This document shows, piece by piece, positions 27,545-59,239 of a stretch of DNA of 64,000 nucleotides. The first letter of the stretch is position 1. Every line of letters starts with the position of its first letter. A model generated the notes under the pieces. That model searched no databases and was not told where the DNA came from. It worked only from the letters and a program-made list of their open reading frames with translations. Origin of the DNA: Nitrospirota bacterium (GTDB lineage Bacteria; Nitrospirota; UBA9217); assembly GCA_963818475.1 (NCBI GenBank), contig CAWFSF010000002.1, forward strand, positions 128,001-192,000. Direction: 5' to 3'. Made by a program: the position numbers and the translations under genes.

Positions 27545-30352
<2,808 letters not shown>

Positions 30353-39783: not shown

Positions 39784-41079
39784 TTACCTCTTCATCTCTT
39801 GGTGGCATTGGACGCAAAGGTCCGTACCGAATTGAAAATGCATCAGGCGTTTCTGGTCCGACCCGTGAGACTTGTGGCAGCTCAGGCAATCCAGGGTGAG
39901 GTTTTTATTCCTCGGATCTGTCGCCTTTTCTCCTATCGGGTGTGACGAATGGTGCGTAAAGTCATGGCAGGTGCTGCAGAGATCAATGATCTTCGCCTCC
40001 TTCATCAGGAGGACATTATCGGATGCATGGGGAGAATGGCAGGTCGTGCACATCCCTTCCTGTACAGGATTGTGCTTGGAAAGTGCCTTTTCCTGCCTTG
40101 TGATCGTGTCCTTGTGGCAACTGCCACAGAGGCTCGTCATCGAGTCCTGTTTCAGGAGGGCCGCCCGCTTTGAGGCATGAGGGCTATGACAGTTCAGGCA
40201 GCCCCGATGATCGATCAGGGGCCAATGAATCCGGTTTTTGGACAATGCGGCATTGACCATTTCATAGTGGCATCCGCGGCAGAGCTCAAAACCGGTCTTC
40301 TTGGTCTTGAATGGCGTCGATGATGTCGGGTCTTCATGACACTGATTGCACATCTTGTTGGCGACCGGAACGTGAACGGTGTCATAAAGAAGGGCGCTTC
40401 TCATGGAACCGTGGGGATTATGGCACGAAGTGCAGTTGGAATCAGCAACAGGATAATTCTGATGGACCTTCACAAAGAACGGCTTGTCGGTCTGATGGCA
40501 GTCCTTGCAGAGACCAGGAACGTCCTTCTTGAGAAGATGGAGCGCCGTGGCCGACCCATGGGGATTGTGGCAATTCAAACATCCCGAGGTCACCGGCTTA
40601 TGCTTGCGTTTCGCCTTATCGAGGGAGTCACCCAGTTCCTTGTGGCAATCCAGGCAGAGTTTGTTGCCGGAAAGCTTAAGATTGAACTTGTTGGCCGCTG
40701 CATGGGGATCATGGCATTTGACGCAATTGCCCTCTGTAACGACCTTGTGGCTGCTCTTCGCCTTATCAGGGATCACCGACGCATGGCACGTGCTGCATAT
40801 CGCGCCGGTATCGGTCGCAAGAAGTTTGCCGTGTGAAGACGTATGCGGGCTGTGGCATCCGATACATTCTCCCTGCCTGAGCGGAGTATGCACAAATGTG
40901 TTTTTCAGCTTTTCGGAGAACGTCGAGTGACAGCCGAGGCAGATTTTACCCTCTGCTCCAGGCTTCAGCCTGAACTTGTTCTGCGCATCTGAGCGGTCAA
41001 CGGCGATCGTGAGAAAACAGGTGCTGATCAGCACGGTCAAACAGATCCAGAATTTCATATATGACATTATCCTTTTCAT
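39784..41079 (-). CDS. Multiheme cytochrome c, 16 CxxCH
   Basis: 16 CxxCH motifs counted, paired CxxCHxPH pattern; start overlaps the upstream stop (ATGA). Confidence 0.95.
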   Translation of the reverse strand: MKRIMSYMKFWICLTVLISTCFLTIAVDRSDAQNKFRLKPGAEGKICLGCHSTFSEKLKNTFVHTPLRQGECIGCHSPHTSSHGKLLATDTGAICSTCHASVIPDKAKSSHKVVTEGNCVKCHDPHAAANKFNLKLSGNKLCLDCHKELGDSLDKAKRKHKPVTSGCLNCHNPHGSATALHLLKKDVPGLCKDCHQTDKPFFVKVHQNYPVADSNCTSCHNPHGSMRSALLYDTVHVPVANKMCNQCHEDPTSSTPFKTKKTGFELCRGCHYEMVNAALSKNRIHWPLIDHRGCLNCHSPHASKRAALLKQDSMTSLCGSCHKDTITRQEKALSKHNPVQEGMCTTCHSPHASDNVLLMKEAKIIDLCSTCHDFTHHSSHPIGEKATDPRNKNLTLDCLSCHKSHGSDQKRLMHFQFGTDLCVQCHQEMKR

Positions 41080-43040
41080 TGCTTTTCCCCGATATGGCAT
41101 GCCTCACAGGACCGTGCCGCAAAGGGCGGGTGCATCACTTCCTTGAAGAATTTGGGGTCCTTGGACATATGGGGATCATGGCAACGCCTGCAATTCATCT
41201 GCTTCGCGTCGATCCCAATGTGGGCCTTCGCGAACGATGGACGGGTAAAATCGTGACAGTTGCCGCACAGATCCGGAACCGGCTGAGAGACCAGAGAAGC
41301 CTGGGGCGAGAAATGGGGCATATGGCACGTCAGACAGTTCCCTTCTACCGGAGAATGCACGTTTTCCTTTGCCATCCGTTCCTTCATGTCCTTATGGCAG
41401 GTCAGGCAGAGGTCCGGGCTCGATGCGAGCAGAAGGCTTTTCAACTTCGACTTGTGCGGGCTGTGGCACTTCGAGCACTCACCGTTCGTGACCGGGGTAT
41501 GCCTGCTCTTGCCGTCCTGGACGGCCTTCTTCAGGTCAGGGTGGCAGGTAAAGCAGATCTCCTCCTGTTTTTTCACGATCATCCCCTTGATATTGCTTCC
41601 ATGGGCATCGTGGCACGTGAGGCAATCGCCCCCGGTGAACGGTATATGGTTGGTCCCTCCAACTTCCTCTTTCATGAATTCTCCGTGGCACTGCTTGCAG
41701 AGATCGGAACCCGAGGCTTTCAGGATCCTCGGGATGTCGGAACCGTGGGGATTGTGGCATGCGTTGCACTGGGCATTTACCACCGGCTGATGGACATAGT
41801 TCCTTGCAAATCCAATTTCCGCGTCTGAATGACAGGAGTAGCAGACCTTGTCCATCCTGTCTTTCATCATATTCTGGAAATTCGAGCCGTGGGGATTATG
41901 ACAGGAGGAACACATCTCCGCGTCGAACGGCATATGGGCATTCTTGCTTTTCTTTGCGTCTTTCGTCTTTGCATGGCAGGAAAAACAAAGCTCGCCGTCC
42001 TTTGCCCGAAGCATTTTCTGGTTCTTGGCGGCATGGGGGGCATGGCAGGACAGGCAGCCGTTTCCGGTGGTAACTGCGGCATGGGAGACAGCGGTCTTTT
42101 CGCCCTTGTCGGGATGGCAGCTGAAACACAGCTTGTTGCCGGCATCGGCGAGAAGCTTCATGTTCTCCGAATCATGGGGGTTGTGGCAGGAAAGACACAT
42201 GCCGCCCTGGAAAGGCGCGTGCACGATCTCGCCGCCGGCCTTGAGCCCGGCCTGATCATGGCATTGATAACAAAGCTCCCCTCCGCTCAGGATGGTGCCG
42301 AACGGCTTATCGGATGTTGCGGGATTGTGGCACATGTTGCAGGCAGCGGAAACGAGAGGATTGTGAGCGCTTGTCTTGAGGAGCTTGGCCTGCGCTGAGG
42401 AGTGGGGATTATGACATTTTGTACAGGTCCTGTCCTTGACAGGATACCCGCCGTGCGCTTTTTTGAAAGAAGAATTCTCGCTGTCATGACACGTCATGCA
42501 CAGGGTGGCGGCTGGATTTCGCAGCAGATTGACTTCGTCTGAACCATGCGAAAAATGGCACCCTTTGCAGCCGTCGGTCTGAAGTGGCTTATGTACCACT
42601 TTCTTTTCGAACTGCTCCTTCGCGTGGCACTGATAACAAAGATCGCTCCCTTCGGATTTAAGCAGGTGATCCGACTGAGATGCGTGCGGGTTATGGCAGA
42701 GAGAACATTGCCCATTTTTCAGCGCTGTGTGAACATGAGCCTTGTCGGCCCCGATCTTCTCCTTGCTGTGACAGGCATAGCAGGTTTGATTCCCGATATC
42801 CTTCAGAATGAGCTTGGGGATGATGCCGTGGCGGAGATGGCAATCCTCGCATTTTTTTTCTTTGACGACAACGTGCACATTTTTCATCGAAAAATATTTT
42901 TGCTCGAATTTAGTATGGCAGTCTAAACACTCTTTCCGCTGAAACGTCTGCATTCTTATCTGCGGCTCGCATGCCATCAGAACGAGAGTTCCTGCCAGAA
43001 CAAGCAGCAGCGTCTGTATGAAATATTTTTTATTTTTCAT
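41076..43040 (-). CDS. Multiheme cytochrome c lipoprotein, 26 CxxCH
   Basis: 26 CxxCH motifs counted; lipobox-like LMAC; start MKNKK. Confidence 0.95.
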   Translation of the reverse strand: MKNKKYFIQTLLLVLAGTLVLMACEPQIRMQTFQRKECLDCHTKFEQKYFSMKNVHVVVKEKKCEDCHLRHGIIPKLILKDIGNQTCYACHSKEKIGADKAHVHTALKNGQCSLCHNPHASQSDHLLKSEGSDLCYQCHAKEQFEKKVVHKPLQTDGCKGCHFSHGSDEVNLLRNPAATLCMTCHDSENSSFKKAHGGYPVKDRTCTKCHNPHSSAQAKLLKTSAHNPLVSAACNMCHNPATSDKPFGTILSGGELCYQCHDQAGLKAGGEIVHAPFQGGMCLSCHNPHDSENMKLLADAGNKLCFSCHPDKGEKTAVSHAAVTTGNGCLSCHAPHAAKNQKMLRAKDGELCFSCHAKTKDAKKSKNAHMPFDAEMCSSCHNPHGSNFQNMMKDRMDKVCYSCHSDAEIGFARNYVHQPVVNAQCNACHNPHGSDIPRILKASGSDLCKQCHGEFMKEEVGGTNHIPFTGGDCLTCHDAHGSNIKGMIVKKQEEICFTCHPDLKKAVQDGKSRHTPVTNGECSKCHSPHKSKLKSLLLASSPDLCLTCHKDMKERMAKENVHSPVEGNCLTCHMPHFSPQASLVSQPVPDLCGNCHDFTRPSFAKAHIGIDAKQMNCRRCHDPHMSKDPKFFKEVMHPPFAARSCEACHIGEKQ

Positions 43041-43074
43041 GGGTAGTATCATAGTGAAGTATAGACTGTAATTG

Positions 43075-44775
43075 CTATATGTCAATCCCTTCTATATAGA
43101 CCCTGATATCCGCTCCTGCTCTGAGTTTATCGGCCCAACCCTCCACTCCCTGCTTAATGCGTTCATCGAACAATTGTTTCGCTATCGGAGCCCTGACCGA
43201 CACATAGTCCTGGGTCTGCGATGGGTATACGGCCACTACGGAGATAATGTAAAAATAGCCTTCAGGCCCTGCATAAAGCCTCGAATCTCCCGAACTCACA
43301 CCCGAAAGCGTTGTCTTGAGGTCGTCCGGCAATTCCGGGGTGGTGAAAACATTCCCCGCTAATTTCATAAGGTCTTCAGCATCCTTCTCGACCTGTCCCT
43401 GGGCATGTTCCTTTAACCAGGAAAGCTGGTCTCCGTTTTTGAGTTTCCGCAAAGCCGTTTCCGCACCGCTCCTCTTTTTAAAAGCAATGCTGTCCAGCCT
43501 CATCAGCTCGGATGTAGTATATTCCGCGAAATGCTGTGTGTAATATGCTTTAACTTCGGATTCCATTACGTTTATTTCCGGGAGAACGACCTTCTCAACG
43601 AACACACCGAAGACAACGGAGTTCTCATAATTCTTGACCACCTTTTGATACGAAGCAGCCTTCTTAATATCTTCGACAGCAGCCTCCTTCAAAAGCACTC
43701 TTTTTTCGAGCACCTCGTCAAGAACCATGTGTTTTTTCTCATTCAAGTTCGTTTTTCCGATCGCCCGGTCGATGCCATGAAAGTATTTCTGTCGCAACTC
43801 GTCAGTCAGATCAGACACTTTTACCGGGTCTTCCCCTGCTATTTCAGCGACGACACGCTCGTCTGTCATAAGTTTCTCGAACTTCTCCGGCGAAGACCCG
43901 TAATCAAGACCGTCGAAAACCTCTTTATTGATCTTTACATACTTATTTTTTAAGGACTCGATAAATTCCTGCCTTGCCACGCTCTTCTGCTGCTGCAGTG
44001 CTTCCGTTATTGCCGATTCTTTTTTCTCCGGGGATTCCTCGCGGCGGGCATCGTCCAGTTTTACGAGCGCAAACCCCGCAGGGATATTGATAATCTGGCT
44101 GACCGAGCCTGTCGTCATTGTCAAAAGCGCCTCGCTCAGCCCAGGGAGGATCTCGTCGTTTTTTAAATATCCTTCAGCCTTCCCTCCCTTTGCCTTCCCT
44201 GCGGCAATCGCCTTTTCTGCAAGCTCTTCAAAATTCTTGCCTGTTCTGAGTTCCGCCTCCATCTTCCGCGCGTCATCTTCCTTGGCAAACATGACCGATG
44301 CAAATTTCCATTCCATTATGTTCCTTTTGTAGAGTTTATCAACCATGGCATCATCAGGCTTTATACCCTTTTCATGCTCCTTGATCAGGGCTGTTCTGAG
44401 AGTCTCTCTGGAGTAGCCCTCTACCGATCCTTTGACTTCCGGCAGTTCGTTCAGCCCGATATTTTTTGCTTCCTGCAGAATAAGCCTCGTGTTAACCAAA
44501 CGCTTTACGAGGCCGGCATAATCCACCTTTCCCGGCGTCTTCCCCCCGGCCTTCTGCTCACCGGCTCTTTCCTCTTCAGACATGATGCTGAAGTGCATCG
44601 CTGAAATTTCCTGTTCATATTCTTCCCGGGAGATCGGCTCGCCATTGACGAGCGCCACAGCTTCTTTCCCTTCAAAAAGGGGAAGTTTCGCTGTTGATGT
44701 TGATACACACGCCGTTGTTCCCGTCATCAACACGGCCGCCAAAACAATGACCAAAAGTGCTGGGATTCGTCTCAT
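43075..44775 (-). CDS. SurA/PpiC-type chaperone/peptidyl-prolyl isomerase lipoprotein (duplicated architecture)
   Basis: VALVNGEPIS, LILQEAKNIGL, GKNFEELA, GSVSQII..GFALVK; second half repeats the pattern. Confidence 0.85.
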   Translation of the reverse strand: MRRIPALLVIVLAAVLMTGTTACVSTSTAKLPLFEGKEAVALVNGEPISREEYEQEISAMHFSIMSEEERAGEQKAGGKTPGKVDYAGLVKRLVNTRLILQEAKNIGLNELPEVKGSVEGYSRETLRTALIKEHEKGIKPDDAMVDKLYKRNIMEWKFASVMFAKEDDARKMEAELRTGKNFEELAEKAIAAGKAKGGKAEGYLKNDEILPGLSEALLTMTTGSVSQIINIPAGFALVKLDDARREESPEKKESAITEALQQQKSVARQEFIESLKNKYVKINKEVFDGLDYGSSPEKFEKLMTDERVVAEIAGEDPVKVSDLTDELRQKYFHGIDRAIGKTNLNEKKHMVLDEVLEKRVLLKEAAVEDIKKAASYQKVVKNYENSVVFGVFVEKVVLPEINVMESEVKAYYTQHFAEYTTSELMRLDSIAFKKRSGAETALRKLKNGDQLSWLKEHAQGQVEKDAEDLMKLAGNVFTTPELPDDLKTTLSGVSSGDSRLYAGPEGYFYIISVVAVYPSQTQDYVSVRAPIAKQLFDERIKQGVEGWADKLRAGADIRVYIEGIDI

Positions 44776-45074
44776 GGTAACTCCTTTGTAATTGCAGTCA
44801 TGGCTGATGCAGATTTTCTTTAGACAATTCTTTAGACAAGAGCTTGATATACTAAAGTCATAAGATAGCAATTAATGTACCATTTGCGGCTTCCTCTTAA
44901 ATAAACCCACAACTGATTAATTTTAAAGAAATATCGACACTGGTATGATTATCATCGAAGTATATTAACGGGATATGCCCGGTAAAATGACCACATTTTC
45001 GCCGTCATTTTACCAGACGGGAGCTGAGGATCTGATCTGATCAATATGTCCCATACCATGCTTCCGAGTTAATT

Positions 45075-48000
45075 TTATTTCTGTTTAGCCATTTTTTCAA
45101 CGGCACGTGCCATTTCAGCCGCCAGTGCATGGGCGGTATTGATGCGGCCCCAGTCAAACAAGTAAACAGCATCATCTCCTTCATTGCGACTGCTGGATGA
45201 CCATACCACCTCACGAGTATTCCTGTTGATAAGCAGCAGAGAAAACCCAACCTTTGGCTTGCCAAAAACCCCAGTATGGTCTTGATAATCCAGAACTTTT
45301 CCGCTAAGAATAAGATCAGCTTTCAGTTCGTCTGCAATAAGATCGGCATCAGTGAGGGATATCCCGTCGTACATAATTATCCTGTAATCGAGTAATTTTT
45401 CTTTTATAAGGCCGGGTTCAATGACGCTGAAATGTTTTCCGTTAAAAAGCTCCCGCAAAAAATGCTGCGCCATGATCTCTCCTGCATATTTTCTGTCAGT
45501 GCTATTCGTAAAAGGCATTATTGCAATTCGACGCGGAGCATCATCGTCAATCACCGTAACGGTATGCGACCCGACCTCCCCCGGGGTCGCGTTCACCGAA
45601 GTTCCCAGGGTCGCCACGATCGTCTTATTGTCCTCTTGCAGCGTATTGTTCATGAGGACACTACTGACGCCGGCCGTGGTCGCGCCTGCCTTGATGGTCA
45701 CGGGGTTCGGGGTCATGACCCGGTAGTGCTTCCCGTCAACAGCGGTCCCGCTCACGGTAAAGGGCACGACCACGTCCTTGCCCGATGCGCTGGAGAGCTG
45801 CATGGTCACGGTTGCCGACCCGCCGTTCTCCTGCACGTCCTGTCCCGCCGAGGTGAAGGTGATCGCGGGCGCGGGGTCGTTGTCGATGATCGTACAGGTA
45901 TGGACCGTCTGTTTGCCCAGGACGGCGTTGACGGGGTTTATGAGCGTCGCTTCGATGGTCTCACTGTCTTCGTGGAGGTTGTCGTCGATGATCCCGAGGT
46001 CGATGCTCTTGGCAGTCTCACCGGGCTCGAAAGCGAGGGTGGTGGTTTTCAGGGTATGGTCCCTGCCGGTCTCTGCCGTGCCGCCGGTGACGGCGTATTC
46101 CACGGTCGCTGGTTTGCCGCTGGCCGCGCTTAATGATACTTCGATCTTCGCAGGGCTCTTTCCTTCAGCTTCCTGGGAGCCCTGCAGCATAAAGGAGACA
46201 AGGGGCGCCGGGTCGTTGTCCGTGACGGTTACGGTATGGACCGGGCGTTCGCCCAAAGCTGCATTTTCCGGTTTCCCCAGGGCCACGACGGTCGTCTTGC
46301 TGTCTTCGTAGAGGTTGTTGTCCAGCAGGGCAAGGGTGATGCCGGCCGTGGTCGCGCCTGCCTTGATGGTCACGGGGTTCGGGGTCATGACCCGGTAGTG
46401 CTTCCCGTCAACAGCGGTCCCGCTCACGGTAAAGGGCACGATCACGTCCTTGCCCGATGCGCTGGAGAGCTGCATGGTCACGGTTGCCGACCCGCCGTTC
46501 TCCTGCACGTCCTGTCCCGCCGAGGTGAAGGTGATCGCGGGCGCGGGGTCGTTGTCGATGATCGTATAGGTATGGACCGTCTGTTTGCCCAGGACGGCGT
46601 TGACGGGGTTTATGAGCGTCGCTTCGATGGTCTCGCTGTCTTCGTGGAGGTTGTCGTCGATGATCCCGAGGTCGATGCTCTTGGCAGTCTCACCGGGCTC
46701 GAAAGCGAGGGTGGTGGTTTTCAGGGTATGGTCCCTGCCGGTCTCTGCCGTGCCGCCGGTGACGGCGTATTCCACGGTCGCTGGTTTGCCGCTGGCCGCG
46801 CTTAATGATACTTCGATCTTCGCAGGGCCCTTTCCTTCAGCTTCCTGGGAGCCCTGCAGCACGAAGGAGACAAGGGGCGCCGGGTCGTTGTCCGTGACGG
46901 TTACGGTATGGACCGGGCGTTCGCCTAAAGCTGCATTTTCCGGCGTCCCCAGGGCCACGACGGTCGTCTTGCTGTCTTCGTAGAGGTTGTTGTCCAGCAG
47001 GGCAAGGGTGATGCCGGCCGTGGTCGCGCCTGCCTTGATGGTCACGGGGTTCGGGGTCATGACCCGGTAGTGCTTCCCGTCAACAGCGGTCCCGCTCACG
47101 GTAAAGGGCACGACCACGTCCTTGCCCGATGCGCTGGAGAGCTGCATGGTCACGGTTGCCGACCCGCCGTTCTCCTGCACGTCCTGTCCTGCCGAGGTGA
47201 AGGTGATCGTGGGCGCGGGGTCGTTGTCGATGATCGTACAGGTATGGACCGTCTGTTTGCCCAGGACGGCGTTGACGGGGTTTACGAGCGTCGCTTCGAT
47301 GGTCTCACTGTCTTCGTGGAGGTTGTCGTCGATGATCCCGAGGTCGATGCTCTTGGCAGTCTCACCGGGCTCGAAAGCGAGGGTGGTGGTTTTCAGGGTA
47401 TGGTCCCTGCCGGTCTCTGCCGTGCCGCCGGTGACGGCGTATTCCACGGTCGCTGGTTTGCCGCTGGCCGCGCTTAATGATACTTCGATCTTCGCAGGGC
47501 TCTTTCCTTCAGCTTCCTGGGAGCCCTGCAGCACGAAGGAGACAAGGGGCGCCGGGTCGTTGTCCGTGACGGTTACGGTATGGACCGGGCGTTCGCCCAA
47601 AGCTGCATTTTCCGGTTTCCCCAGGGTCACGACCGCTGTTTCTGTGTTCTCGGAGAGATGATCGTCCTTCGGCTTGATAATGATCGTTCCGCTTGTTTCG
47701 CCTGCCTTGATGAAGAGCGGGGCCGGCGTGATGCTGTAATCGGCACCTTCTTGCGCGGTCCCGCTCACGGTAAAGGGCACGACCACGTCCTTGCCCGATG
47801 CGCTGGAGAGCTGCATGGTCACTGTTGCCGACCCGCCGTTCTCCTGCACGTCCTGTCCCGCCGAGGTGAAGGTGATCGCGGGCGCGGGGTCGTTGTCGAT
47901 GATCGTATAGGTATGGACCGTCTGTTTGCCCAGGACGGCGTTGACGGGGTTCGAGAGCGTCACCTCGATGGTTTTGTTATCATTATATTTCCTGTCGTCG

Positions 48001-51000
48001 ATGATCCTTATATTGATAGTCTTAAATGTCTCGCCTGGGTTAAAGACCACAACGCCGTTCTTCAGCGTGTAATCCCTGTCGCTTGCAGCGCTGCCTCCCG
48101 TGACCGCGTACTCGACCGCGACTTTCTTCCTGCTGGCCAAGCTCAACGAGAGGGATATCTTTGCAGGGTTTTTTCTCTCATAACCTTCAGATCCCGCCAT
48201 GGAGAAGTTTACCGCAGGTTCAGGTTCTTCCATTAAATTTACGTTCGATGGGGTGTTGGTCTTTTTTGCAATCACCCTGTGGCGATGCACAATAAGGCTG
48301 CCCAGGACCGCGTTGACAGGGTTCGAGAGCGTTACCTCGATGGTCCTGTCATTGCCGTACATCCTGTCATCGAAGCCCCCGATGTCGATGACCTTGGACC
48401 TCTCCCCGGGGTCGAAGACAAGCATGCCTTTTTTCAGGGTATCGTCCCGGCCGTTTGCTGCAGTGCCGCCGCCCCTGACCGCATACTCCACCGTGGACCT
48501 CCTGCCGCTCGCCGCGCTCAACGACACTTCGATCTTCGCAGATCTCGCGCCTTCATCTTCTGTGGAGTCCTTCAAGCCAAAGCCGACGGCAGGCGGAGGA
48601 TCGCTTTCTACAACGGTCACCCGGTGCACGGCGCGCGCGCCCGGCGTCGCATTTACCGCCGTCCCTATCGACACCGATATCACGTTGTTATTTTCGTACA
48701 GCTTATTATCTACGAGAACTACGGTGATAATGCCGGTCCTTTCCCCGGCCCTGATGATCAAGGGGTTCGGGGTGCTGACCCGATAGTTCTTCCCGTCAAC
48801 CGCTGTCCCGCTCACGGTAAAGGGCACGAGCACGTCCTTCCCTGAGATTGCAGAGAGCTTTACGGTTACGGCCACCTCTCCGCTGTCCTCTCTGACCTCC
48901 TGTGCCTGCAAAGCGAAGGTCACGGATGGGGTCGGGTCGTTCTCGACAATGGTATAGGTATGGACCGTCTGTTTGCCCAGGACCGCGTTGACCGGGTTCG
49001 CGAGCGTCACTTCGATCGTCTCGCTGTCTTCGTGGAGATTGTCATCAATGATCCCGATGTCGATGTTCTTGGCAGTCTCGCCGGGCTTGAAGTCGAGCGT
49101 GCCGTTTTTCAGGGCATAATCCCTGCCGCTTACAGCCGTGCCGCCCGTGACCGCGTACTCCACCCTGATATTTTTACTGCTCACTGTGCTTAACGATGCG
49201 GTAAGACGAGCGCGCCCAACCGATTCCTTTCCACGGGAAACGGTTGCAGCAAACGAAACGGCAGGGGGGACGTCGTTTTCAATAATGGTATAGGTATGGA
49301 CCGACTGTTTGCCAAGGACCGTGTTAACAGGGTTCGCCAGCGTCACTTCGATGGTCTCGCTGTCTTCGTGGAGGTTGTCGTCGATGATCCCGAGGTCGAT
49401 GCTCTTGGCAGTCTCACCGGGCTCGAAGAGCGAGCGTGCCGTTTCTTTGGGCATAGTCGCTGCTGTTCGCTGCGGTGCCGCCCGTTACCGCATACTGTAC
49501 CGTGGTCCTTCTGCCGACTACTGAGCTCAGCGCGACGTCGAGCCTCGCAGGTGTTACACCTTCATCTCCACCGGATTCCTTCATCGAGAAGGCTACAACG
49601 GGAGGCGGACTGCTCTCAAAAATGGTCAGGCGGTGCACCGGGCGTTCGCCCAAAGCTGCATTTTCCGGTTTCCCCAGGGCCACGACGGTCGTCTTGCTGT
49701 CTTCGTAGAGGTTGTTGTCCAGCAGGGCAAGGGTGATGCCGGCCGTGGTCGCGCCTGCCTTGATGGTCACGGGGTTCGGGGTCATGACCCGGTAGTGCTT
49801 CCCGTCAACAGCGGTCCCGCTCACGGTAAAGGGCACGATCACGTCCTTGCCCGATGCGCTGGAGAGCTGCATGGTCACGGTTGCCGACCCGTCGTTCTCC
49901 TGCACGTCCTGTCCCGCCGAGGTGAAGGTGATCGCAGGCGCGGGGTCGTTGTCGATGATCGTATAGGTATGGACCGTCTGTTTGCCCAGGACGGCGTTGA
50001 CGGGGTTTACGAGCGTCGCTTCGATGGTCTCGCTGTCTTCGTGGAGGTTGTCGTCGATGATCCCGAGGTCGATGCTCTTGGCAGTCTCACCGGGCTCGAA
50101 AGCGAGGGTGGTGGTTTTCAGGGTATGGTCCCTGCCGGTCTCTGCCGTGCCGCCGGTGACGGCGTATTCCACGGTCGCTGGTTTGCCGCTGGCCGCGCTT
50201 AATGATACTTCGATCTTCGCAGGGCTCTTTCCTTCAGCTTCCTGGGAGCCCTGCAGCATAAAGGAGACAAGGGGCGCCGGGTCGTTGTCCGTGACGGTTA
50301 CGGTATGGACCGGGCGTTCTCCCAACGCTGCATTTTCCGGTTTCCCCAGGGCCACGACGGTCGTCTTGCTGTCTTCGTAGAGGTTGTTGTCCAGCAGGGC
50401 AAGGGTGATGCCGGCCGTGGTCGCGCCTGCCTTGATGGTCACGGGGTTCGGGGTCATGACCCGGTAGTGCTTCCCGTCAACAGCGGTCCCGCTCACGGTA
50501 AAGGGCACGATCACGTCCTTGCCCGATGCGCTGGAGAGCTGCATGGTCACGGTTGCCGACCCGTCGTTCTCCTGCACGTCCTGTCCCGCCGAGGTGAAGG
50601 TGATCGCAGGCGCGGGGTCGTTGTCGATGATCGTATAGGTATGGACCGTCTGTTTGCCCAGGACGGCGTTGACGGGGTTTACGAGCGTCGCTTCGATGGT
50701 CTCGCTGTCTTCGTGGAGGTTGTCGTCGATGATCCCGAGGTCGATGCTCTTGGCAGTCTCACCGGGCTCGAAAGCGAGGGTGGTGGTTTTCAGGGTATGG
50801 TCCCTGCCGGTCTCTGCCGTGCCGCCGGTGACGGCGTATTCCACGGTCGTTGGTTTGCCGCTGGCCGCGCTTAATGATACTTCGATCTTCGCAGGGCTCT
50901 TTCCTTCAGCTTCCTGGGAGTCCTGCAGCATGAAGGAGACAAGGGGCGCCGGGTCGTTGTCCGTGACGGTTACGGTATGGACCGGGCGTTCGCCCAAAGC

Positions 51001-52950
51001 TGCATTTTCCGGTTTCCCCAGGGCCACGACGGTCGTCTTGCTGTCTTCGTAGAGGTTGTTGTCCAGCAGGGCAAGGGTGATGCCGGCCGTGGTCGCGCCT
51101 GCCTTGATGGTCACGGGGTTCGGGGTCATGACCCGGTAGTGCTTCCCGTCAACAGCGGTCCCGCTCACGGTAAAGGGCACGATCACGTCCTTGCCCGATG
51201 CGCTGGAGAGCTGCATGGTCACGGTTGCCGACCCGCCGTTCTCCTGCACGTCCTGTCCCGCCGAGGTGAAGGTGATCGTGGGCGCGGGGTCGTTGTCGAT
51301 GATCGTATAGGTATGGACCGTCTGTTTGCCCAGGACGGCGTTGACGGGGTTTACGAGCGTCGCTTCGATGGTCTCGCTGTCTTCGTGGAGGTTGTCGTCG
51401 ATGATCCCGAGGTCGATGCTCTTGGCAGTCTCACCGGGCTCGAAAGCGAGGGTGGTGGTTTTCAGGGTATGGTCCCTGCCGGTCTCTGCCGTGCCGCCGG
51501 TGACGGCGTATTCCACGGTCGCTGGTTTGCCGCTGGCCGCGCTTAATGATACTTCGATCTTCGCAGGGCTCTTTCCTTCAGCTTCCTGGGAGCCCTGCAG
51601 CACGAAGGAGACAAGGGGCGCCGGGTCGTTGTCCGTGACGGTTACGGTATGGACCGGGCGTTCGCCCAAAGCTGCATTTTCCGGTTTCCCCAGGGTCACG
51701 ACCGCTGTTTCTGTGTTCTCGGAGAGATGATCGTCCTTCGGCTTGATAATGATCGTTCCGCTTGTTTCGCCTGCCTTGATGAAGAGCGGGGCCGGCGTGA
51801 TGCTGTAATCGGCACCTTCTTGCGCGGTCCCGCTCACGGTAAAGGGCACGACCACGTCCTTGCCCGATGCGCTGGAGAGCTGCATGGTCACTGTTGCCGA
51901 CCCGCCGTTCTCCTGCACGTCCTGTCCCGCCGAGGTGAAGGTGATCGCGGGCGCGGGGTCGTTGTCGGTGATCGTATAAGTATGGACCGTCTGTTTGCCC
52001 AGGACGGCGTTGACGGGTTTCGAGAGCGTCACCGCAATGGTCCTGTCGCCGCGGTAGAGCTTATCATCGAGGACCCTGATATCGATTTCTTTGGATAACT
52101 CCCCTGGCCCAAAGATCAGGGTGCCGCTTTTCAGGCTATAGTCCCTGCCGGTCTCTGCCGTGCCGCCGGTGACGGCGTATTCCACCGTTACCTTCCTCGG
52201 ACTGGGCGCGCTCAGCGATACATCGATCTTTGCGGGGGACACGCTTTCCTCCCTGCCCAACCTCCGCAACGCAAAATTAACGACAACTTCCCGAAAGCCG
52301 ACTCCGGTCACCGTTGAAACATAGTCGGCCTTGGGTTTGAATTTTCCGTTGTTCTCGTCATAATCTCTCTCGCGGCCGGAGACGAAGCCCGCCAGAGAAC
52401 CTGCAAGCGCGGCCGTAGCCCTGTCAAGAAGGACTTTCTGATCTTCGATCAGGCCAAGGCCGAGAAGACCCGGCGCATCATCGCCGGCCGAGCCGATGCT
52501 GTCAATCCATACAATTTCGGGGCGCTCTCCGGTTGAGACCAGACGCGCTGAGAGGGCGATCTGCGGAGGGTTGTTGTCGTGGTAAAGTTCGAGAGAGGTA
52601 ATGAGCACACCGGCAACTCCGGCCTCCTCCTTGAACGCGCGGGCCATGTCACTGTTGAGTCCGCCGGTATCGCGCATTCTCCGCCGTTCCATGAACTGCG
52701 CAAGCCCGTCCTCTTCCAGGAGATCGAAGCCCTGGCCCTTCAGTTTTTCCGAGAATGACCGCGCTATTTCATCAAGCGGCGCAGGCGAACTGCTGCGGTT
52801 TTCAATGGGCAAAAGCGCAATCCGGCCTAGCCGGTGGAAACCGGTATCACTTGTCAGCCGCCCGTTCACGGACGCGCACCCCGCAAGAAGCGCCAGACCC
52901 GCACAGAGGACCGTGAGGTGCTTATGCAATGTCTTTCCTGAAAGGTTCAT
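45075..52950 (-). CDS. Giant lipoprotein (about 2,624 aa if joined): CsgG/GNA1162-like domain, 20 Calx-beta-like domains, second CsgG/GNA1162-like domain; one extra base near 49428
   Basis: Lipobox LAGC; N-terminal RIALLPIEN and C-terminal RIAIMPFTN domains; repeats VEYAVTGGTA..GxD..L.F.PGET.K.I...IIDD.L.E..ET; GCTCTTCGAG at the junction versus GCTTTCGAG in sister repeats. Confidence 0.88.
45660..47960. repeat. Intragenic tandem repeat, about 672-bp unit (block 2)
   Basis: Near-identical shadow ORFs end at 46133, 46805, 47477 (672-bp spacing). Confidence 0.9.
49637..52187. repeat. Intragenic tandem repeat, about 672-bp unit (block 1)
   Basis: Near-identical shadow ORFs start at 49633, 50305, 50977, 51649. 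Confidence 0.9.
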
Positions 52951-53315
52951 GGCTTTTTCTGTAACGCCCGCCTGTCTCTTTGCTCGTCAAATTATAGGGC
53001 AGCTGCCTGCATGGCCGGAACAGCCTGCGAATCCGTCATTGTCAGGGAAAGGACCTTGTCGGGTGCGTGCTTTGGGGGGTGGCGAAATGTCCCCGGAAAG
53101 AGGATGATTTCACCTTGTCTGCAGCATGTTGTCCGAATAGTCATGCGTGCCGAATCCTGCGGAAACAAAATACGGGCGGCATTTCCCTGCCGCTTCTCTG
53201 GAACAACGGCAAGCTCTTTCCTCGACACGGGAAGGGTCCTTTTCCGCTGTTGACCTTCCCTCAGCAGGCCGGGAAGAGCGTCCGCTAACGGAGAACAGGA
53301 CCGCAGATCGCCTGG

Positions 53316-53894
53316 TCAAAAAAGCTCATTGACCAGCTCTATGACAGCCTCCCGCGTGACATCGTTCATCGGCCGTCCCCCGCCGCCCAGGAGACGGTCC
53401 CCGGCGGTTATGCCGCCCCGCGTGGAAGATGCGGTCCATACCACCCTGCCCGTCTGGGCCTCGATCATCTGAAGACTGAGGGAGATGACATTGGAAGACG
53501 TCGTCCCTGACCGGACCTCTCCATATTCCCTGAGCACGCCCGTGATAACGGCATCGGCCTTGACAATGCCCCCCAGTTTGGTGATCTCTTCCGCAGAGGG
53601 TACGGTCGCTTTCTCGATCCCTGCCCGTGTAATGCCTCGCGCAACCTCTCCAGCAGGGAGCACGTAGATGGCGCCTGTCGACAGAAGCATGTTCATGAAG
53701 ACGTCCCTTACCCTGTTTGCAGCCTGATTGTCTTTCGTGAGGTTCTCAAAAGGCATTACCGCAACGGTCCGCACCGACCCGAGGTCGAAATTCGGGTCAT
53801 GGTAAACCGAGCGTTTGGAGGAGGCAGCACAGGCCGGCAGGGAAATCAGAACAAGTGAAAGCAGGACCGTTATGAGATTTTTAATCACGTTCAT
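53316..53894 (-). CDS. CsgG/GNA1162-like lipoprotein
   Basis: Lipobox LPAC; TVAVMPFENLT, ADAVITGVLREY, MIEAQTGRVVW; SD GAGGTG. Confidence 0.82.
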   Translation of the reverse strand: MNVIKNLITVLLSLVLISLPACAASSKRSVYHDPNFDLGSVRTVAVMPFENLTKDNQAANRVRDVFMNMLLSTGAIYVLPAGEVARGITRAGIEKATVPSAEEITKLGGIVKADAVITGVLREYGEVRSGTTSSNVISLSLQMIEAQTGRVVWTASSTRGGITAGDRLLGGGGRPMNDVTREAVIELVNELF

Positions 53895-53951
53895 CACCTC
53901 AATGGTATTATTTTTTATTATGACATGCAATAAAAATTCAGGTGGCGGCGA

Positions 53952-56189
53952 TCAAAAAAACACCATCAGGCTTGTACTGAATGCCCTTGCATCTGATTTG
54001 TCAAGATCCGATTCACCATGGGACACCTGATACGATGCCGCGAGATAGGAAGTGCGGCTGAGATTCAATCGAACGGACGGAGTGATGACCCTGGTCATCG
54101 CGTTGTTTTCGGACGCCAGACTCTCATTATACGCTAAAGAGAACTGGAATGCACCGTCGGGGAACGGCGACCAATTGAGCGAATAATTGTGGAACGTCCT
54201 GTCTCTCTCCTGGTCGGTTATCTTGCTCAGCGTAGCAACGAGGTAGAGCGTCCGAAACGGAATATAGGACGCGCTCACCTCTGTTCTCCTGGTAAAGTCC
54301 GATGAGCCCGGCCCGCCCCCTCCCGACCTGTCCGTTTTCGTTGAGGAAAAAAAATAGCTCAGGTTCAGGTCAGGGTGAGGCATCAGGTTGGAGAGAACGC
54401 TCCAGATCGTGCTTTTCACGTTTTCTCCCGTCTCCCGGTTCTGAAAGCTTTCCCCTCCAGAGACCACAATGTTTATGCCTTTGTAAAGGTCCGCATAATT
54501 GTTCAGGAAGAGGGATTTCGTGTCAGTTCGCCCGCCGTCTCTCTCCTCGTCCCGCCCGCTATAGGTAAGGCTGTGGCGGAGCGTCCGCAGGGGAACCGCC
54601 ATAAGGGAGGCGTTCGTGACATACGCAACACCGTTGCCTGCAGGATCGGAAAAGTCCTCCCGGGCGACTCGCGCGCTTCCTGAAAAAACTTTGCTGAACC
54701 TCTGGCTCACCAAGAGGCCGTTCGAAAGGTTCCATCTCTCCTGGGAAGAAGGCTCTGTCTTTGTGTAAAAATAGGAAAGTTCGTAATTGAGGTTCGGGAT
54801 GTCCAGAAGCTGCGCTCTCCCGTCAAAATTATAGGCATGGATGGTGCTGGTCGTTTCGCCTCTTACTTCCTCGGCGGGCTTTCTCGCAAACGCCTGGAGC
54901 TCCGTCACAAAGATGTCGGGAAACCCTGTTGCTCCCGTCACCACCGGAGACAGGGGTTTCACCACGACCTTTATGTATCTCGTCGTCACCGGTGAAAAAG
55001 CGATCTCAAAACGGTTATCAAAAGGCCCGAACTGTGCGGGGAATACGGTTGTGTGAAAATTCCAGACCAGGTTGTCCGAGCTTGTATAAATATCCCAGGA
55101 GAACGAGCTGGCGATTGCAGCCGGGAGCTCCCGGTCCACCCAGACAAAAAGCGTGTTCATCTCCCCCGGGAGAGACAGATCGAGACCGAGGTTCCGTTCC
55201 CTTCCGTCGCCCGTGATGGGCGGAAGCCCGATATTGACCCCCGTGCTTGCTGCCAGGGCGCCGTCTATCAAGGAGGCATTCGGCGTGAGGGCGCCGTCAG
55301 CAGGGGTGTCGTCGATGGATGACAGCCCTGAAAAGGGGACCAGCCCAATGTCCACCAACCCCGCCCCGGTGACAGAAGTTTTCATGGTGCTGTGGACAAC
55401 GTTGTAGCTCGTGTTGAACGAGATCCGCTCCTGGGCAATGCGATCGGAGTAATCCACCCTTCCAACCTGGTTCAGCTGCTTCGTTTCAAGGGACGTCAGC
55501 TGGTTTTTGGTGTTTATGTATGACGGCCGGTATCGTATTGCAAGATTGTCCGACGGCACATATTCCGCGGTGAGCCCGATGAAATCCCTGACCATGTCCT
55601 GGTAAGCCCGCTCCTTGTCAAAGAGATGGGTTCTTTCGGCCCGCATCTCGATATGGGGAAAGTCCTCCGGTCTCCAGCCAAGGATGGCGGTGCTGGTCTC
55701 ATTGATATTCGTTATCGAGGGCCCACTGGAGGAAGACGCCGTCTCCTCCCGTCTGAGGTATCTGACGCCGGCCGTGTAGATCGGCGTCCTCAAGGTAAGG
55801 TCAGCGTACGGCTGTATCCTGGTCAAGGTCGATTCTGTTTCCATGCCGTTGGTAGTCGATTCGCTGTCTGTTTTATCAAAAAGGCCGCTCGCAGAGAACC
55901 TGAGATAGGGGTAGAGGGTCCGGGAGAACGTCAGGTTGTAGCGTTGATTGAAGCTGTTGGCTTCCGTCCGGCTGACATTTCCCGAAGCATCTTCGGACCT
56001 GGAGTCCAGATTGCTGTATCCGAAGTTCAGATAACCACTGACCCCTTCCGCCACGACAGCATCGGGGCAGGATACCGCTCCCAGACAAAACAATGCCAGA
56101 AACACAGCGGCAGTGCCGGTTCCCCTGCAGCGGGATACCCACCATCGGCCTCCCTCTTTATCACGAGCGGCTGACAGCACAGAACGCAC
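53952..56189 (-). CDS. Putative outer-membrane beta-barrel with inserted discoidin-like domain
   Basis: Amphipathic beta-strand pattern, terminal Phe; central IYTSSDNLVW...TTRYIKVVV motif. Confidence 0.78.
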   Translation of the reverse strand: MRSVLSAARDKEGGRWWVSRCRGTGTAAVFLALFCLGAVSCPDAVVAEGVSGYLNFGYSNLDSRSEDASGNVSRTEANSFNQRYNLTFSRTLYPYLRFSASGLFDKTDSESTTNGMETESTLTRIQPYADLTLRTPIYTAGVRYLRREETASSSSGPSITNINETSTAILGWRPEDFPHIEMRAERTHLFDKERAYQDMVRDFIGLTAEYVPSDNLAIRYRPSYINTKNQLTSLETKQLNQVGRVDYSDRIAQERISFNTSYNVVHSTMKTSVTGAGLVDIGLVPFSGLSSIDDTPADGALTPNASLIDGALAASTGVNIGLPPITGDGRERNLGLDLSLPGEMNTLFVWVDRELPAAIASSFSWDIYTSSDNLVWNFHTTVFPAQFGPFDNRFEIAFSPVTTRYIKVVVKPLSPVVTGATGFPDIFVTELQAFARKPAEEVRGETTSTIHAYNFDGRAQLLDIPNLNYELSYFYTKTEPSSQERWNLSNGLLVSQRFSKVFSGSARVAREDFSDPAGNGVAYVTNASLMAVPLRTLRHSLTYSGRDEERDGGRTDTKSLFLNNYADLYKGINIVVSGGESFQNRETGENVKSTIWSVLSNLMPHPDLNLSYFFSSTKTDRSGGGGPGSSDFTRRTEVSASYIPFRTLYLVATLSKITDQERDRTFHNYSLNWSPFPDGAFQFSLAYNESLASENNAMTRVITPSVRLNLSRTSYLAASYQVSHGESDLDKSDARAFSTSLMVFF

Positions 56190-56194: not shown

Positions 56195-57595
56195 CTACCT
56201 CTCTCCCATCAGGGTCACCCAGTACGCGCCTTCGCCGACATCCAGCTCGGCGACCGTTTGGTTGCTGATGATATTGATGCCCAGAAGGGTCTTTTTTCGA
56301 GGCAGGACAAGATACAGGTTATTTTCGTCACCATCGATCGCCATGCAGGAGATGCCCCCTCCTGCCAGGATCGTATCAGTCGGCATTTCCAGTGCCGGCT
56401 CGTATACCGAAACCACAGGGTCATTGCGCTTACCGAGAAAAATACGGTCGGTCCTGGTATCCACCTTGAGAGCGCTCATTGCCGTCCCCGCGGAGATCCG
56501 CTGGAGCGCGGACAGGGTCGTTGTATCGATGACCATAAGGTATGAGGAGAGCGCATGGATGACATAGAGCCGGTCACCCTTCCGGTTCATCTGCCCCCGC
56601 AGCGGCCCCGCATCCGTGGAGATCGTCGCGGATACCTGCCTGGCTGCGAGATCGATGATCGAAATCGTATCGGAGAGGGTATTGAAGACATAGGCCCTCC
56701 TTCCGGCTGGATCGAAGAGGACCGCGTTGGGCGCTTTGCCCACGCTGATCCTCTCCAGCTCGATCAGGGAAACAGGGTCGATGATGCTTACCGTGTCCGA
56801 ACCCTTGTTCGCCGTCAGCAGGAAGCGGCCGTCGGGCGAGAGAGCCGGCTCTTGCGGACGGTCGCCGGTCGAGAGCGGTATCCTGTGCACAATATCGCCT
56901 GCGGCAACATCAATAACATCAACAGCATCATCCCCTGCAAGCGCTACATAGGCCCTCTGCCGTCCCTTGTCAAGGGCGATGCCCCGGGGGCCCATGCCTG
57001 TTGCGATAACGCTTACGACCTGTCCGGACTTTTTGTTGAAGACCGTGATGTTGTTCGACCCGTAATTTGCCACGTATCCCGCAAGGGCCGGGATCGGCTG
57101 GTCGGGATGAACGAGTAAAAAAGACGGGCTGAAACCGGACCGCTCTATTACTGCTTCGGCAGGACGGAACGTTCCTGCTATGACGGAGGACTTGCCCCTT
57201 CGCACCTCAAAGGGGAACCCGGCAAGCAGCGGATTTTCAGGCACGACGAGTGCACTCTCTCCCTCGGCCCCTCTGAAAAAGGGGTTAACGGCACGGAACG
57301 AAAGACCGGTATAGGACCCGGGCGGCAAGGTGCCGGAAGCTACGAGGCGCTGTCTGCTCATCACGCTGATACTGAAATCAGAGACCGCAAGCGAGAGGGG
57401 GAATTCCCTGCCGTCATCCCTCAGGGCAGCGACCTCGCTGAGGCCGAATCTGATCCGCTCCGCCTCTCCGGGAAAGGGCTGGACATAGAGAAAGACCTCG
57501 CCTTCCTCGTCGAGAGGAGGTTTCAGAGAAGCTGAGGTTGCGTAGCATCCGGAAAAAAAGACAACCCCGATAAGAAAAAGACTTATCTTACTCAT
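56195..57595 (-). CDS. YVTN/YncE-type beta-propeller lipoprotein
   Basis: Lipobox FSGC; YVANYGSNNITV, TANKGSDTVSIID, YVFNTLSDTISIID. Confidence 0.88.
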   Translation of the reverse strand: MSKISLFLIGVVFFSGCYATSASLKPPLDEEGEVFLYVQPFPGEAERIRFGLSEVAALRDDGREFPLSLAVSDFSISVMSRQRLVASGTLPPGSYTGLSFRAVNPFFRGAEGESALVVPENPLLAGFPFEVRRGKSSVIAGTFRPAEAVIERSGFSPSFLLVHPDQPIPALAGYVANYGSNNITVFNKKSGQVVSVIATGMGPRGIALDKGRQRAYVALAGDDAVDVIDVAAGDIVHRIPLSTGDRPQEPALSPDGRFLLTANKGSDTVSIIDPVSLIELERISVGKAPNAVLFDPAGRRAYVFNTLSDTISIIDLAARQVSATISTDAGPLRGQMNRKGDRLYVIHALSSYLMVIDTTTLSALQRISAGTAMSALKVDTRTDRIFLGKRNDPVVSVYEPALEMPTDTILAGGGISCMAIDGDENNLYLVLPRKKTLLGINIISNQTVAELDVGEGAYWVTLMGER

Positions 57596-57934
57596 TGGAT
57601 TCCTTGCCCCACGGTTCACTTTCGTATCCGCTCCATCCTTCTCAGTGCGTGGATTCGATGAGTAGTATTAACAAGTCCCTCGCCTGCGTGCATTACAAAC
57701 CGTATTAATAGCGATGCGGGTCGTGGCCCCGCACCGCGTTTTTTTCTCTGTAATCTCCCTGTCCGGCTGTTGAATGTTCTTTTCGAACAACCAAAACAGT
57801 GTATCATGCTCCCCGCTGTTTTTATTATTTGTTCGTAGCAATCGTTCAGTCCTCTGCATGAAAAGAACTTTATCGATGAATCCTATACCTGGTCTGAGGC
57901 AAATGGTAGATGAAACGCGCTGTAAATTCAAGAG

Positions 57935-57991: not shown

Positions 57992-59239
57992 TTAGTCTTT
58001 TGCGTGGCACTTGTTGCAGAGAGACCGCTGATAAGAACCGTAATGCATCGTGGTGTCATTGTATGCTTTTGTGGTCTCTGCTACGGTACGGCCTTGTGCG
58101 TACTTCGGCTGGTTGGCAACGAGGCTCGGAGAATCGGTGCCCGGCCATACGCCGTCAACAGCGATGAACTCGCCTGCATTGTTCCACCGACCCATGAATT
58201 CCCATCCGCTTGCATGCGACTTGTGGCAGGAGAGGCACATGACCCGGTCACTCGTTGCAGGTCCTTCCGGTTTGGTGCCGTCGTTCACGGCCAGGGCCTT
58301 AAGAACGGCATAGTCTGTCGTATTGTCGGTCTGGAACGGAGCGAGTGAATCGAATGCAGTTGCGAGCGTTCCTGCCAGGTTGCCGCTGCCAATATATGAG
58401 TTGTAGATGCCCGCAACAGTGGTGCCCAGCGTCTGATTAACCGGGTGGGTCATCTTTGAGCTCGTGCCGGAATGCATATCCGGGTGGCAGGTTGCACACC
58501 AGTCGGTAATCCCGGCTCCATAGGCTACACGGGTAGGAGTTGCTGCCTCTGTTCTGTTATACGTGCTCGGAACAACCGCATTAAATACTGCATTGAAGGT
58601 CTTGCCGCCGGAACCGGCAGAAGAACCCGTTCCGCGAAGGATACGGTATGCGCCGACTGCCTGGCCAGCTAACGGGGTAACACTGTTGTTGTAGGAACCG
58701 GAAGCGATGATCGGGGCGCCGGTAGTGGCAAAGGTCCCGTCAGAAAGCCTTCTCAGTACGCCGTGGTTGTCATGGCAGCTATTGCAGCCGAGCTGTGTTG
58801 CATCCATGTCGCCGCCGGGAGCTACCGTGTTTTTTGCATCAGCGGTATAACCAAAGTCAGCGGCTACGATATTGTGGCCGTGGCCATCGCCAAGGTCAAC
58901 ACTGGTGGTGCCGGTTCTCGGGACATACGTGTAGGTCTTCTTGAGCCAGCCGAAGTCTCCGCCCGGGGTCCTGTTTCCCGGAGGGGTGCCTGCGGGCATA
59001 TCCGCATCAGGAGTGACAATGTGGTAGCTGGATGCGCCTGTTGCGCCGTGGCAACTGATACAGGTGGAGCTGATGTCCGTATTATTCAGAAGGGCAGAGG
59101 TGCTTTTTGCATCGTGAATATTGTGGCAGCCCATGCACTCTGCAACGCCGCCGCTATGGAACGCGAAACTCGTGCTGCTGAGCCCGAAAGAGAAAAGGCC
59201 AACAGCGACAATGATAAGGCTTAATTTGACGATCTTCAT
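57992..59239 (-). CDS. omcS: Hexaheme outer-surface cytochrome, OmcS family (nanowire subunit homolog)
   Basis: Mature N-terminus FHSGGVAECxGCH, TPGGDFGWxKKTY, GHNIVA, STYNRTEA..TRVAYG, terminal YQRSLCNKCHAKD; six CxxCH; matches Geobacter OmcS motifs as I recall them. Confidence 0.93.
   Translation of the reverse strand: MKIVKLSLIIVAVGLFSFGLSSTSFAFHSGGVAECMGCHNIHDAKSTSALLNNTDISSTCISCHGATGASSYHIVTPDADMPAGTPPGNRTPGGDFGWLKKTYTYVPRTGTTSVDLGDGHGHNIVAADFGYTADAKNTVAPGGDMDATQLGCNSCHDNHGVLRRLSDGTFATTGAPIIASGSYNNSVTPLAGQAVGAYRILRGTGSSAGSGGKTFNAVFNAVVPSTYNRTEAATPTRVAYGAGITDWCATCHPDMHSGTSSKMTHPVNQTLGTTVAGIYNSYIGSGNLAGTLATAFDSLAPFQTDNTTDYAVLKALAVNDGTKPEGPATSDRVMCLSCHKSHASGWEFMGRWNNAGEFIAVDGVWPGTDSPSLVANQPKYAQGRTVAETTKAYNDTTMHYGSYQRSLCNKCHAKD

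Follow-up and report, generated by a model that had tools for sequence, protein, structure and literature searches.

A predicted lipoprotein of a Nitrospirota omcS locus with a Calx-beta array inserted between two PelC-like domains

Why would a lipoprotein placed among the export genes of the OmcS cytochrome nanowire, compact in most of its orthologs, carry 20 Calx-beta domains in its middle? The question is raised by a gene at positions 45075-52950 of a 64,000-nucleotide stretch of DNA from a Nitrospirota bacterium (assembly GCA_963818475.1, contig CAWFSF010000002.1, positions 128,001 to 192,000), the whole of which is called the window here. The gene takes the OscG position in an osc gene cluster around omcS, and its product is predicted to hold two PelC-like cores separated by the Calx-beta array. 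The answer that we tentatively favour, from an analysis of sequences and models, is that the array would act as an accessory, Ca2+-stiffened spacer or scaffold, docked by both of its ends at a PelC-type ring of the OmcS export complex. The features of the gene are listed below by their positions in the window (aa, amino acids).

45075..52950, minus strand: OscG-position gene, assembled as two open reading frames, 49414-52950 (1178 aa) and 45075-49454 (1459 aa)
52876..52950, minus strand: lipoprotein signal peptide, with a lipobox ending in Cys25 and Ala as the +2 residue (sequence and motif scan)
52315..52824, minus strand: first PelC-like core, aa 43-212 (alignment, model of a compact ortholog, fold searches and a weak GNA1162 profile match)
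52315-52341, minus strand: conserved arm F-x-P-K-x-x-Y-x-S, which ends the first core and structurally opens the second protomer
45540..52290, minus strand: Calx-beta array, 20 domains of types A and B in 2,251 aa (Pfam, NCX1 alignment and column counts)
49734..52041, minus strand: block of 2,308 bases, copy 1 (98.8% identity to copy 2, no gaps)
49426..49432, minus strand: frame break, a single extra base within Calx domain 9, probably an assembly error
45665..47972, minus strand: block of 2,308 bases, copy 2 (98.8% identity to copy 1, no gaps)
45075..45539, minus strand: second PelC-like core, 154 aa, with a conserved hydrophobic loop beside the position of PelC Trp149

The product is predicted to be a lipoprotein from its lipobox motif with Cys25, and under the general Lol rules an Ala at +2 is expected to lead to outer-membrane sorting. 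The first-pass annotation, made from the sequence alone, had taken the two open reading frames as halves of one gene joined at 49428, and we are confident that they do form a single gene. Intact copies of the repeat, compared at Calx domain 9, run in a continuous frame with one base fewer than the window gene. Reading through the break, with an X at that point, gives a product of 2,625 aa, in which the lipobox cysteine (Cys25) is followed by the first core (aa 43-212), the array (aa 221-2471) and the 154-aa C-terminal core. We also compared short-read contigs from four runs over positions 47950-49640. The join was spanned by one contig of 241 bases that lacks exactly one base at 49428; it is from a related strain (27 substitutions) at low depth (3.1), and its study differs from that of the other three runs. 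Because the contig of this related strain is without the extra base, a single 2,625-aa lipoprotein is most likely. No near-identical contig across the join was found among the four runs over this interval.

The two terminal domains had been described as CsgG/GNA1162-like and as related to the product of the neighbouring gene at 53316. Their homology to one another was borne out (hhalign, 94%, E 1.4e-7), as was that of both to the 53316 product (96.7% and 87.1%), but the closest fold proved to be that of PelC (Z 16) rather than CsgG (Z 12). Neither terminal core alone reaches any Pfam cut-off and neither has a CsgG (PF03783) match; in one compact ortholog the CsgG family scores 26.8 (cut-off 20.8). 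An AlphaFold2 model was made from 104 sequences for the compact ortholog L092, the cores of which are 74% identical to those of the window protein. It has a predicted local distance difference test score (pLDDT) of 93 and a predicted template modelling score (pTM) of 0.91, the latter of which suggests that the two cores pack together in the compact form. The second domain of this model matches PelC with Z 16.2 and a root-mean-square deviation of 3.0 over 150 residues (Z 16.0 for a second PelC structure), and the model matches PelBC (9h80) with Z 15.1 over 152 residues. PelC was again the best match in Foldseek (E 1.4e-9), and it was the first match of a sequence profile of the second core, which reached four PelC sequences at E 0.0025-0.019. 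Further fold matches of the model were CT253 (Z 13.0), GNA1162 (12.5), the LPHT ring (12.4), TolB (11.8), the curli complex (11.6), LpoB (11.1), TraT (10.3) and HpaA (9.3). An Atlas search gave no usable match for the window protein, and the compact ortholog matched only unnamed lipoprotein clusters there. We conclude that both cores are PelC-like, as judged from the model and from sequence profiles.

As the PelC match spans residues 178-351 of the L092 model, the arm strand would open the second protomer, and the Calx array is placed between this strand and the first core strand of that protomer. Across 144 compact orthologs 99 columns are conserved, and 91 of them are retained in at least 60% of the Calx-bearing orthologs, both cores of which have an identity of 0.55 to the compact consensus. 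In the hydrophobic loop beside the PelC Trp149 position, the F is present in 100% and the G in 94% of 18 Calx forms.

The array is as the first-pass annotation had it, 20 Calx-beta-like domains over some 2,250 aa, and was confirmed by a Pfam scan, which met the gathering score of Calx-beta (PF03160) with E 3.8e-103 and 2e-130 in 9 + 12 stretches, the broken domain being counted twice. A Calx-beta search of the source genome likewise gave 19 whole matches above the cut-off in the gene plus two half matches that meet at the break. The domains, each of 111-126 aa, are ordered ABABABAB-AABA-ABABABAB, and an A-B pair could be aligned to the CBD1-CBD2 tandem of NCX1 (E 2.6e-16). At the columns of the NCX1 residues that we take to be Ca2+ ligands, the 19 whole domains have E in 19/19, D in 18/19, D or N in 19/19, E in 16/19, D or E in 18/19 and D in 17/19, and two ligand positions are mostly Asn. 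The ligands are also retained, less strictly than in the window array, across 125 domains from other orthologs. From these columns the Ca2+-ligand motifs of NCX1 CBD1 type appear to be kept, and Ca2+ binding is predicted.

Within the array there are six A units that are nearly identical; any two of them differ at 2-6 of 336 bases, the differences forming a mosaic, and one pair of 333-base repeat units is identical. Since the copies differ in this mosaic manner, recombination is a better explanation for them than duplication by the assembler. Four unique middle domains were matched with 0-3 differences by short-read contigs, which may derive from the source sample; the exact count of 20 domains is that of one assembly. 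Tandem Repeats Finder did not detect the array, the period of which (672) exceeds the limit of that program (500). No donor of the array was found in the source genome, where there is one other Calx match and no DNA match outside the gene. That other match is a 2,302-aa open frame (G000:C2, ~546000-553161, minus strand), presumably with a metalloprotease-like motif near its start.

How widespread the extension is depends on where one looks. A single-sequence search of genome contigs gave no match; an alignment-based search gave matches. The 61 genome-contig loci divide into 41 compact ones, 11 extended at the N-terminus by >110 aa, seven with Calx-beta domains between the cores and two unassigned, the Calx-bearing ones being seven of the 16 loci from Nitrospirota and none of the 45 others. 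The best 80 of 362 metagenome matches, a set biased by short contigs and by similarity ranking, comprise 72 compact, one extended and seven unassigned proteins and none with Calx. Where Calx is absent the gap from core to core has a median of 10 aa (n = 125). In the window's own family, 21 of 64 genomes have a match, with 13 Calx inserts, three N-terminal arrays of MBG type (so labelled by Pfam for G036 and by motif likeness for G069 and G078) and five compact proteins. Complete Calx inserts hold 2, 4, 5, 6, 7, 8, 10, 14, 19, 20 or 25 domains, the figures of 20 for G082 and 19 for G061 being those after pieces split by frame breaks had been merged (raw matches 22 and 23). The proposal that a compact component had gained an array is therefore upheld in that most orthologs are compact, but the architecture is not a one-off: it is a trait of the lineage, variable in length and present in 13 of the 21 family genomes that have the gene. 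Nor does every ortholog have it, most of those elsewhere being compact. The database names of the proteins are 'hypothetical' or 'TolB-like'.

Calx-beta is not the only extension of this protein. Calx domains occur in 15 of the 150 library representatives that were listed out of 1,194, and in 37 of the 150 the first core is preceded by >100 aa; these extensions are MBG_3 arrays or repeats of ~97 aa that resemble PKD/Y_Y_Y, in 1-10 copies. Where the start of the protein is covered, these arrays sit between the lipobox and the first core, and they directly precede the first core strand of the first protomer, which is the position equivalent to the Calx site. Three loci of the window's family (L018, L172 and L180) have an OscG-position gene with N-terminal MBG-type arrays of up to ~1,250 aa instead of Calx-beta. 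Partner protein sizes are independent of array length across 33 loci, barring open reading frames that a frame break or the end of a locus truncates. The otherwise compact two-core proteins P0077 and P0107 show a fourth type of extension, a C-terminal Cds6_C NTF2-like domain. P0091, the sequence of which is incomplete at both ends, has Calx-beta on both sides of a first-type core. Three genomes of one genus have Calx-bearing copies (L037, L039 and L045) without osc neighbours on the sequenced DNA around them, and two of the three have a second copy within an osc locus.

The history of the insert can be followed from the repeats and from the cores. All 22 typed arrays start with A and 21 end with B (that of G063 ends in A), the shortest being AB, and a lead-in motif after the arm strand is common to most. 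Repeats of one genome mostly resemble each other at 94-100%; between the four genomes compared the best likeness is 40-76%, so that long arrays were probably built or homogenised separately. In trees, the deep branches of which are weakly supported, the window protein groups with full support with two Calx forms and two compact forms, L092 and L093, and the linker of these two compact forms retains the lead-in and exit residues of the array. A clade of the 19 Calx rows alone was rejected by the approximately unbiased test (p-AU 0.002), and a clade of the Calx forms with L092 and L093, chosen after the tree was seen, was not rejected (p-AU 0.55; 67 of 215 rows used). A count of 21 changes for PKD-like extensions was set aside, since N-terminally truncated proteins inflate it. 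These sequences are most simply explained if an A-B pair was gained a single time, expanded repeatedly and was cleanly lost at least once, the array apparently having gone in the closest relatives. As those closest relatives by core sequence are compact, the arm would be dispensable in kin of the window protein. In the compact close relative L093 (L093:3380-4612) the arm segment is tandemly duplicated before the second core. An even-number bias of array lengths was considered as evidence for a hairpin and was discarded, because duplication of A-B pairs explains it.

The genes around the OscG-position gene are as follows.

59519..60460, minus strand: NHL-like propeller protein upstream of omcS (weak NCBIfam NHL match; conserved in loci)
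57992..59239, minus strand: OmcS hexaheme cytochrome, single copy in the genome (E 2e-106 to PDB 6ef8)
56195..57619, minus strand: YVTN beta-propeller of 474 aa, OscD position (domain matches)
53952..56189, minus strand: conserved 745-aa protein, OscE position, presumed outer-membrane beta-barrel (conserved in loci)
53316..53930, minus strand: single-domain PelC/GNA1162-like lipoprotein of 204 aa, OscF position (Pfam GNA1162-like, 1.7e-9; PelC is the best PDB sequence match, E 1.8e-4)
43075..44871, minus strand: SurA/PPIase-type (peptidyl-prolyl isomerase) chaperone, OscH position (domain matches)
41076..43085, minus strand: large multiheme cytochrome (12 paired-CxxCH stretches; 26 CxxCH in orthologs)
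39784..41100, minus strand: multiheme cytochrome (8 paired-CxxCH stretches; 16 CxxCH in orthologs)
38871..39776, minus strand: NHL-repeat protein closing the cluster (domain match)

With a true omcS (E 2e-106) and the complete osc gene order in place, the assignment of the gene to an omcS locus, as a lipoprotein, in the first-pass annotation agrees with our results. The same gene order is found in orthologous loci, those of Geobacteraceae included, and the neighbours are single-copy in the source genome where tested. Shen et al. 2025, as summarised in the accessible text of PMC13194489, ascribe folding to OscH, secretion to OscE, OscF and OscG, and morphology to OscD; the same text has OscD aligned over 473 aa. 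The 745-aa protein at the OscE position has no Pfam or NCBIfam match. Between the gene for the 204-aa lipoprotein and the OscG-position gene lies a gap of 365 bases (52951-53315), where several orthologous pairs overlap; it is possible that it holds a promoter of its own or is an insertion scar. The cluster is adjoined by a PMT_2 + TPR gene (60974-62761, minus strand), the frame of which is broken near 61180. Many osc loci have similar TPR genes beside them, and genes of this type may glycosylate the filament or its partners.

The arrangement that we tentatively propose starts from PelBC, in which, according to the accessible text of PMC12141448, a 16-stranded barrel is encircled at its periplasmic face by twelve PelC lipoproteins, the Trp149 of which dips into the membrane. 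Because both lipoproteins of the osc locus look like PelC, the export complex may be built like PelBC: the 204-aa 53316 protein and the OscG cores would form a mixed ring of PelC type on the 745-aa barrel, in the manner of PelC on PelB. A single insertion, in a Nitrospirota lineage, would have placed an A-B Calx pair in the second domain, behind its first short strand and ahead of its core; through unequal recombination the array would then have grown and shrunk to 2-25 domains, and near relatives would have shed it again. By analogy with adhesin extenders, Ca2+ bound where the domains meet would stiffen the array into an arm of ~80-90 nm, a Calx-beta domain being ~4 nm long. The second core would dock in a ring at the same membrane, leaving the arm to form a loop beyond its own ring or a bridge to a second one, and the arm would serve around the base of the filament as an accessory spacer or scaffold, dispensable for export itself. 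Docking of both ends is favoured because the second core keeps its constraints and the hydrophobic loop beside the Trp149 position. On balance we would place the ring on the periplasmic face; a ring on the cell surface is a serious possibility.

Several points weigh against this arrangement. A two-domain insert, if rigid, is ~8 nm long and has ~10 spare residues, and it could not close onto an adjacent slot, which means that a bend or a swap would be required in the shortest forms. Arrays of Calx-beta, MBG and PKD domains are characteristic of surface proteins, the periplasm is too narrow for an 80-nm rod to stand across it, and the fold is shared with TraT (Z 10.3) and HpaA (Z 9.3), both of which are surface-exposed. 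The fold model covers the compact ortholog L092 and not the Calx-bearing protein itself, and the barrel fold of the 745-aa protein is a presumption, its single-sequence model having a pLDDT of 31. The gene is identified as oscG by gene order and sizes, following the description of the Geobacter sulfurreducens cluster and not its sequence. Mean-field covariation over 187 sequences, too noisy for mapping interfaces, gave a weak tie of the arm strand to the first core and not to the second; hence the kept arm strand is no proof that the chain loops back. Finally, the clade that joins the Calx forms to L092 and L093 was defined with the tree already in view.

A rather unlikely alternative is a linear stalk, in which the first core stays at the lipid anchor and the second sits at the tip of an 80-90 nm rod, much as the head of an adhesin is carried on its extender, there to guide or grip the OmcS filament or to reach a partner beyond surface layers. 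All three array types would distance the second core from the lipid anchor (Calx between the cores, MBG_3 and PKD-like repeats between lipobox and first core), the Calx domains of P0091 lie either side of its first-type core, and the arm strand may pack on the first core, as the weak covariation suggests. The fold is also that of LpoB (Z 11.1), which reaches from its anchor across the periplasm, and Ca2+-stiffened adhesin extenders are described in the accessible text of PMC12153261. However, the second core retains its conserved surface and its hydrophobic loop (F 100%, G 94%), it has gained no ligand-binding tip, and in the compact form, which is the commonest, the cores are tightly packed (pTM 0.91). 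The first-pass annotation had proposed an adhesin-like stalk as a possible tether, ruler or scaffold that couples surface attachment to export; for such coupling we find no direct support, as the array is closed by a second ring-type core, conserved as in compact forms, and there is no ligand-binding domain at a tip.

We consider it unlikely, too, that the array is a tolerated expansion, that is, a small ancestral A-B insert at a permissive site that was amplified and trimmed under little selection for length and gave an arm with no specific role. Array length does range from 0 to 25 domains among relatives, the nearest cores are compact, and the differences between near-identical copies are not biased towards synonymous sites, only 2 of the 8 variable sites among A units being at third positions; the three genomes of one genus with Calx-bearing copies away from sequenced osc neighbours point the same way. 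Against this, at least four genomes have reached 14-25 domains from their own repeat units, the Ca2+ ligands are kept, if less strictly, across the 125 domains of other orthologs, three unrelated Ig-like families occupy the equivalent position with partner sizes unchanged, and an insert of 2,250 residues is costly.

It is quite improbable that the Calx arms are a ruler between export pores, with the second core swapped into the ring of a neighbouring barrel. OmcS pores would then be joined in a lattice by Ca2+-stiffened arms, 8 to ~100 nm long according to lineage, which would determine how nanowires are spaced or bundled, and the repeated capture of three unrelated kinds of Ig-like array at one structural position would reflect selection on envelope-scale architecture.

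More doubtful still is a real frame break, which would leave a truncated lipoprotein of 1,178 aa (first core and 8.5 Calx domains) with a free arm, or else a decaying or phase-variable gene. The assembly does have two open reading frames, no near-identical contig covers the join, and four long forms besides the window gene are also broken (G014 with one frame change, G082 with two, G084 with one and G061 with eight). Yet the 241-base contig, from another study, lacks exactly the one base at 49428, and the breaks in relatives lie elsewhere (frame changes occur in five of 22 arrays, at differing positions, and 17 have none). The break in G014 is one extra G, found in one of four matching copies. 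Frame breaks were found in five of 55 loci testable in the source genome (tested with proteins from the ortholog loci), and the window itself offers a further background case in an ABC-F gene, which we take to be EttA-like (25122-26826, minus strand), split by a frame break near 25620. The second open reading frame has no signal peptide and no sign of decay, and a clear ribosome-binding site was found at neither of the two. A programmed frameshift was also considered and was ruled out by the different places of the breaks in relatives.

That the array is an assembly artefact, as might be suspected from 2.3-kb blocks that are 98.8% identical, an identical pair of 333 bases and a count of 20 from one assembly, is already largely refuted by the mosaic differences between copies, by the short-read contigs over the four unique middle domains and by same-site arrays in 12 other family genomes and in the 15 listed library representatives. 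We thus found neither artefactual repeats, nor halves that are separate genes, nor an array in all orthologs, any of which the first-pass annotation had said would undo its account.

The remainder of the window has other genes. An operon for what we take to be the subunits of an F-type ATP synthase lies at 27545-36757 (minus strand); its alpha open reading frame looks cut at the start, and an aldehyde dehydrogenase-like gene of lower GC content (32461-33861) is placed between the b-type subunits and alpha. Three co-oriented genes at 12521-17935 (minus strand) encode proteins of 858 aa (PEGA + carboxypeptidase-regulatory-like), 434 aa (a PD40 propeller) and 495 aa, the last without a Pfam match.

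Secretion and anchoring of the OmcS nanowire are called unresolved in the accessible text of PMC13712944 and PMC12307469. The site of the natural insertions can accommodate 2,000-3,000 residues and is a ready tag position for cryo-electron tomography, and the side of the membrane on which the arm is found would fix the orientation of the ring. If length matters, the architecture of the envelope and the export of nanowires would be linked in uncultured Nitrospirota of sediments and soils; if it is irrelevant, the gene would still be instructive as a case of repeat expansion within a known system.

The osc cluster itself has already been published, and what appears to be new here is the Calx-extended forms of OscG and the likeness to PelC; our literature search, to which the primary osc paper and its supplements were external, found no paper on either. 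The G. sulfurreducens cluster has the same propeller, barrel-position gene, small lipoprotein, OscG-position gene, PPIase, two large cytochromes and NHL protein (roles from the accessible text of PMC13194489). Both cores are shared with the Geobacteraceae orthologs L049 and L084, which are proteins of 375-378 aa with an 11-residue gap between the cores where the window protein has 2,251 aa of Calx-beta. PelC (PDB 5t0z, 5t10 and 9h80) resembles the window protein in having the closest fold (Z 15-16), in being an outer-membrane lipoprotein, as the window protein is predicted to be, with a partner barrel gene, and in the hydrophobic loop at the Trp149 position. It differs in that PelC is a single domain in a homo-12-mer, whereas two fused copies and a single-domain paralog, as here, suggest a mixed ring; moreover a cytochrome would be the cargo here, the gene has no pel neighbours and identity is ~17-22%. 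CsgG, GNA1162, LpoB, TraT and HpaA have the same alpha/beta fold with Z 9-12.5, below PelC, and the 53316 neighbour has a GNA1162-like Pfam match. With CBD1-CBD2 of Na+/Ca2+ exchangers (NCX), the A-B pair aligns and most acidic ligands are kept, and the window protein is without an exchanger domain. A long arm of Ca2+-binding repeats is common to the Calx-beta extenders of LapA/BapP-type adhesins; in contrast to these, no RTX/type I secretion signal or terminal ligand-binding domain was seen in the window protein. As its array is enclosed at both ends by PelC-like cores, it does not appear to be a classic adhesin stalk.

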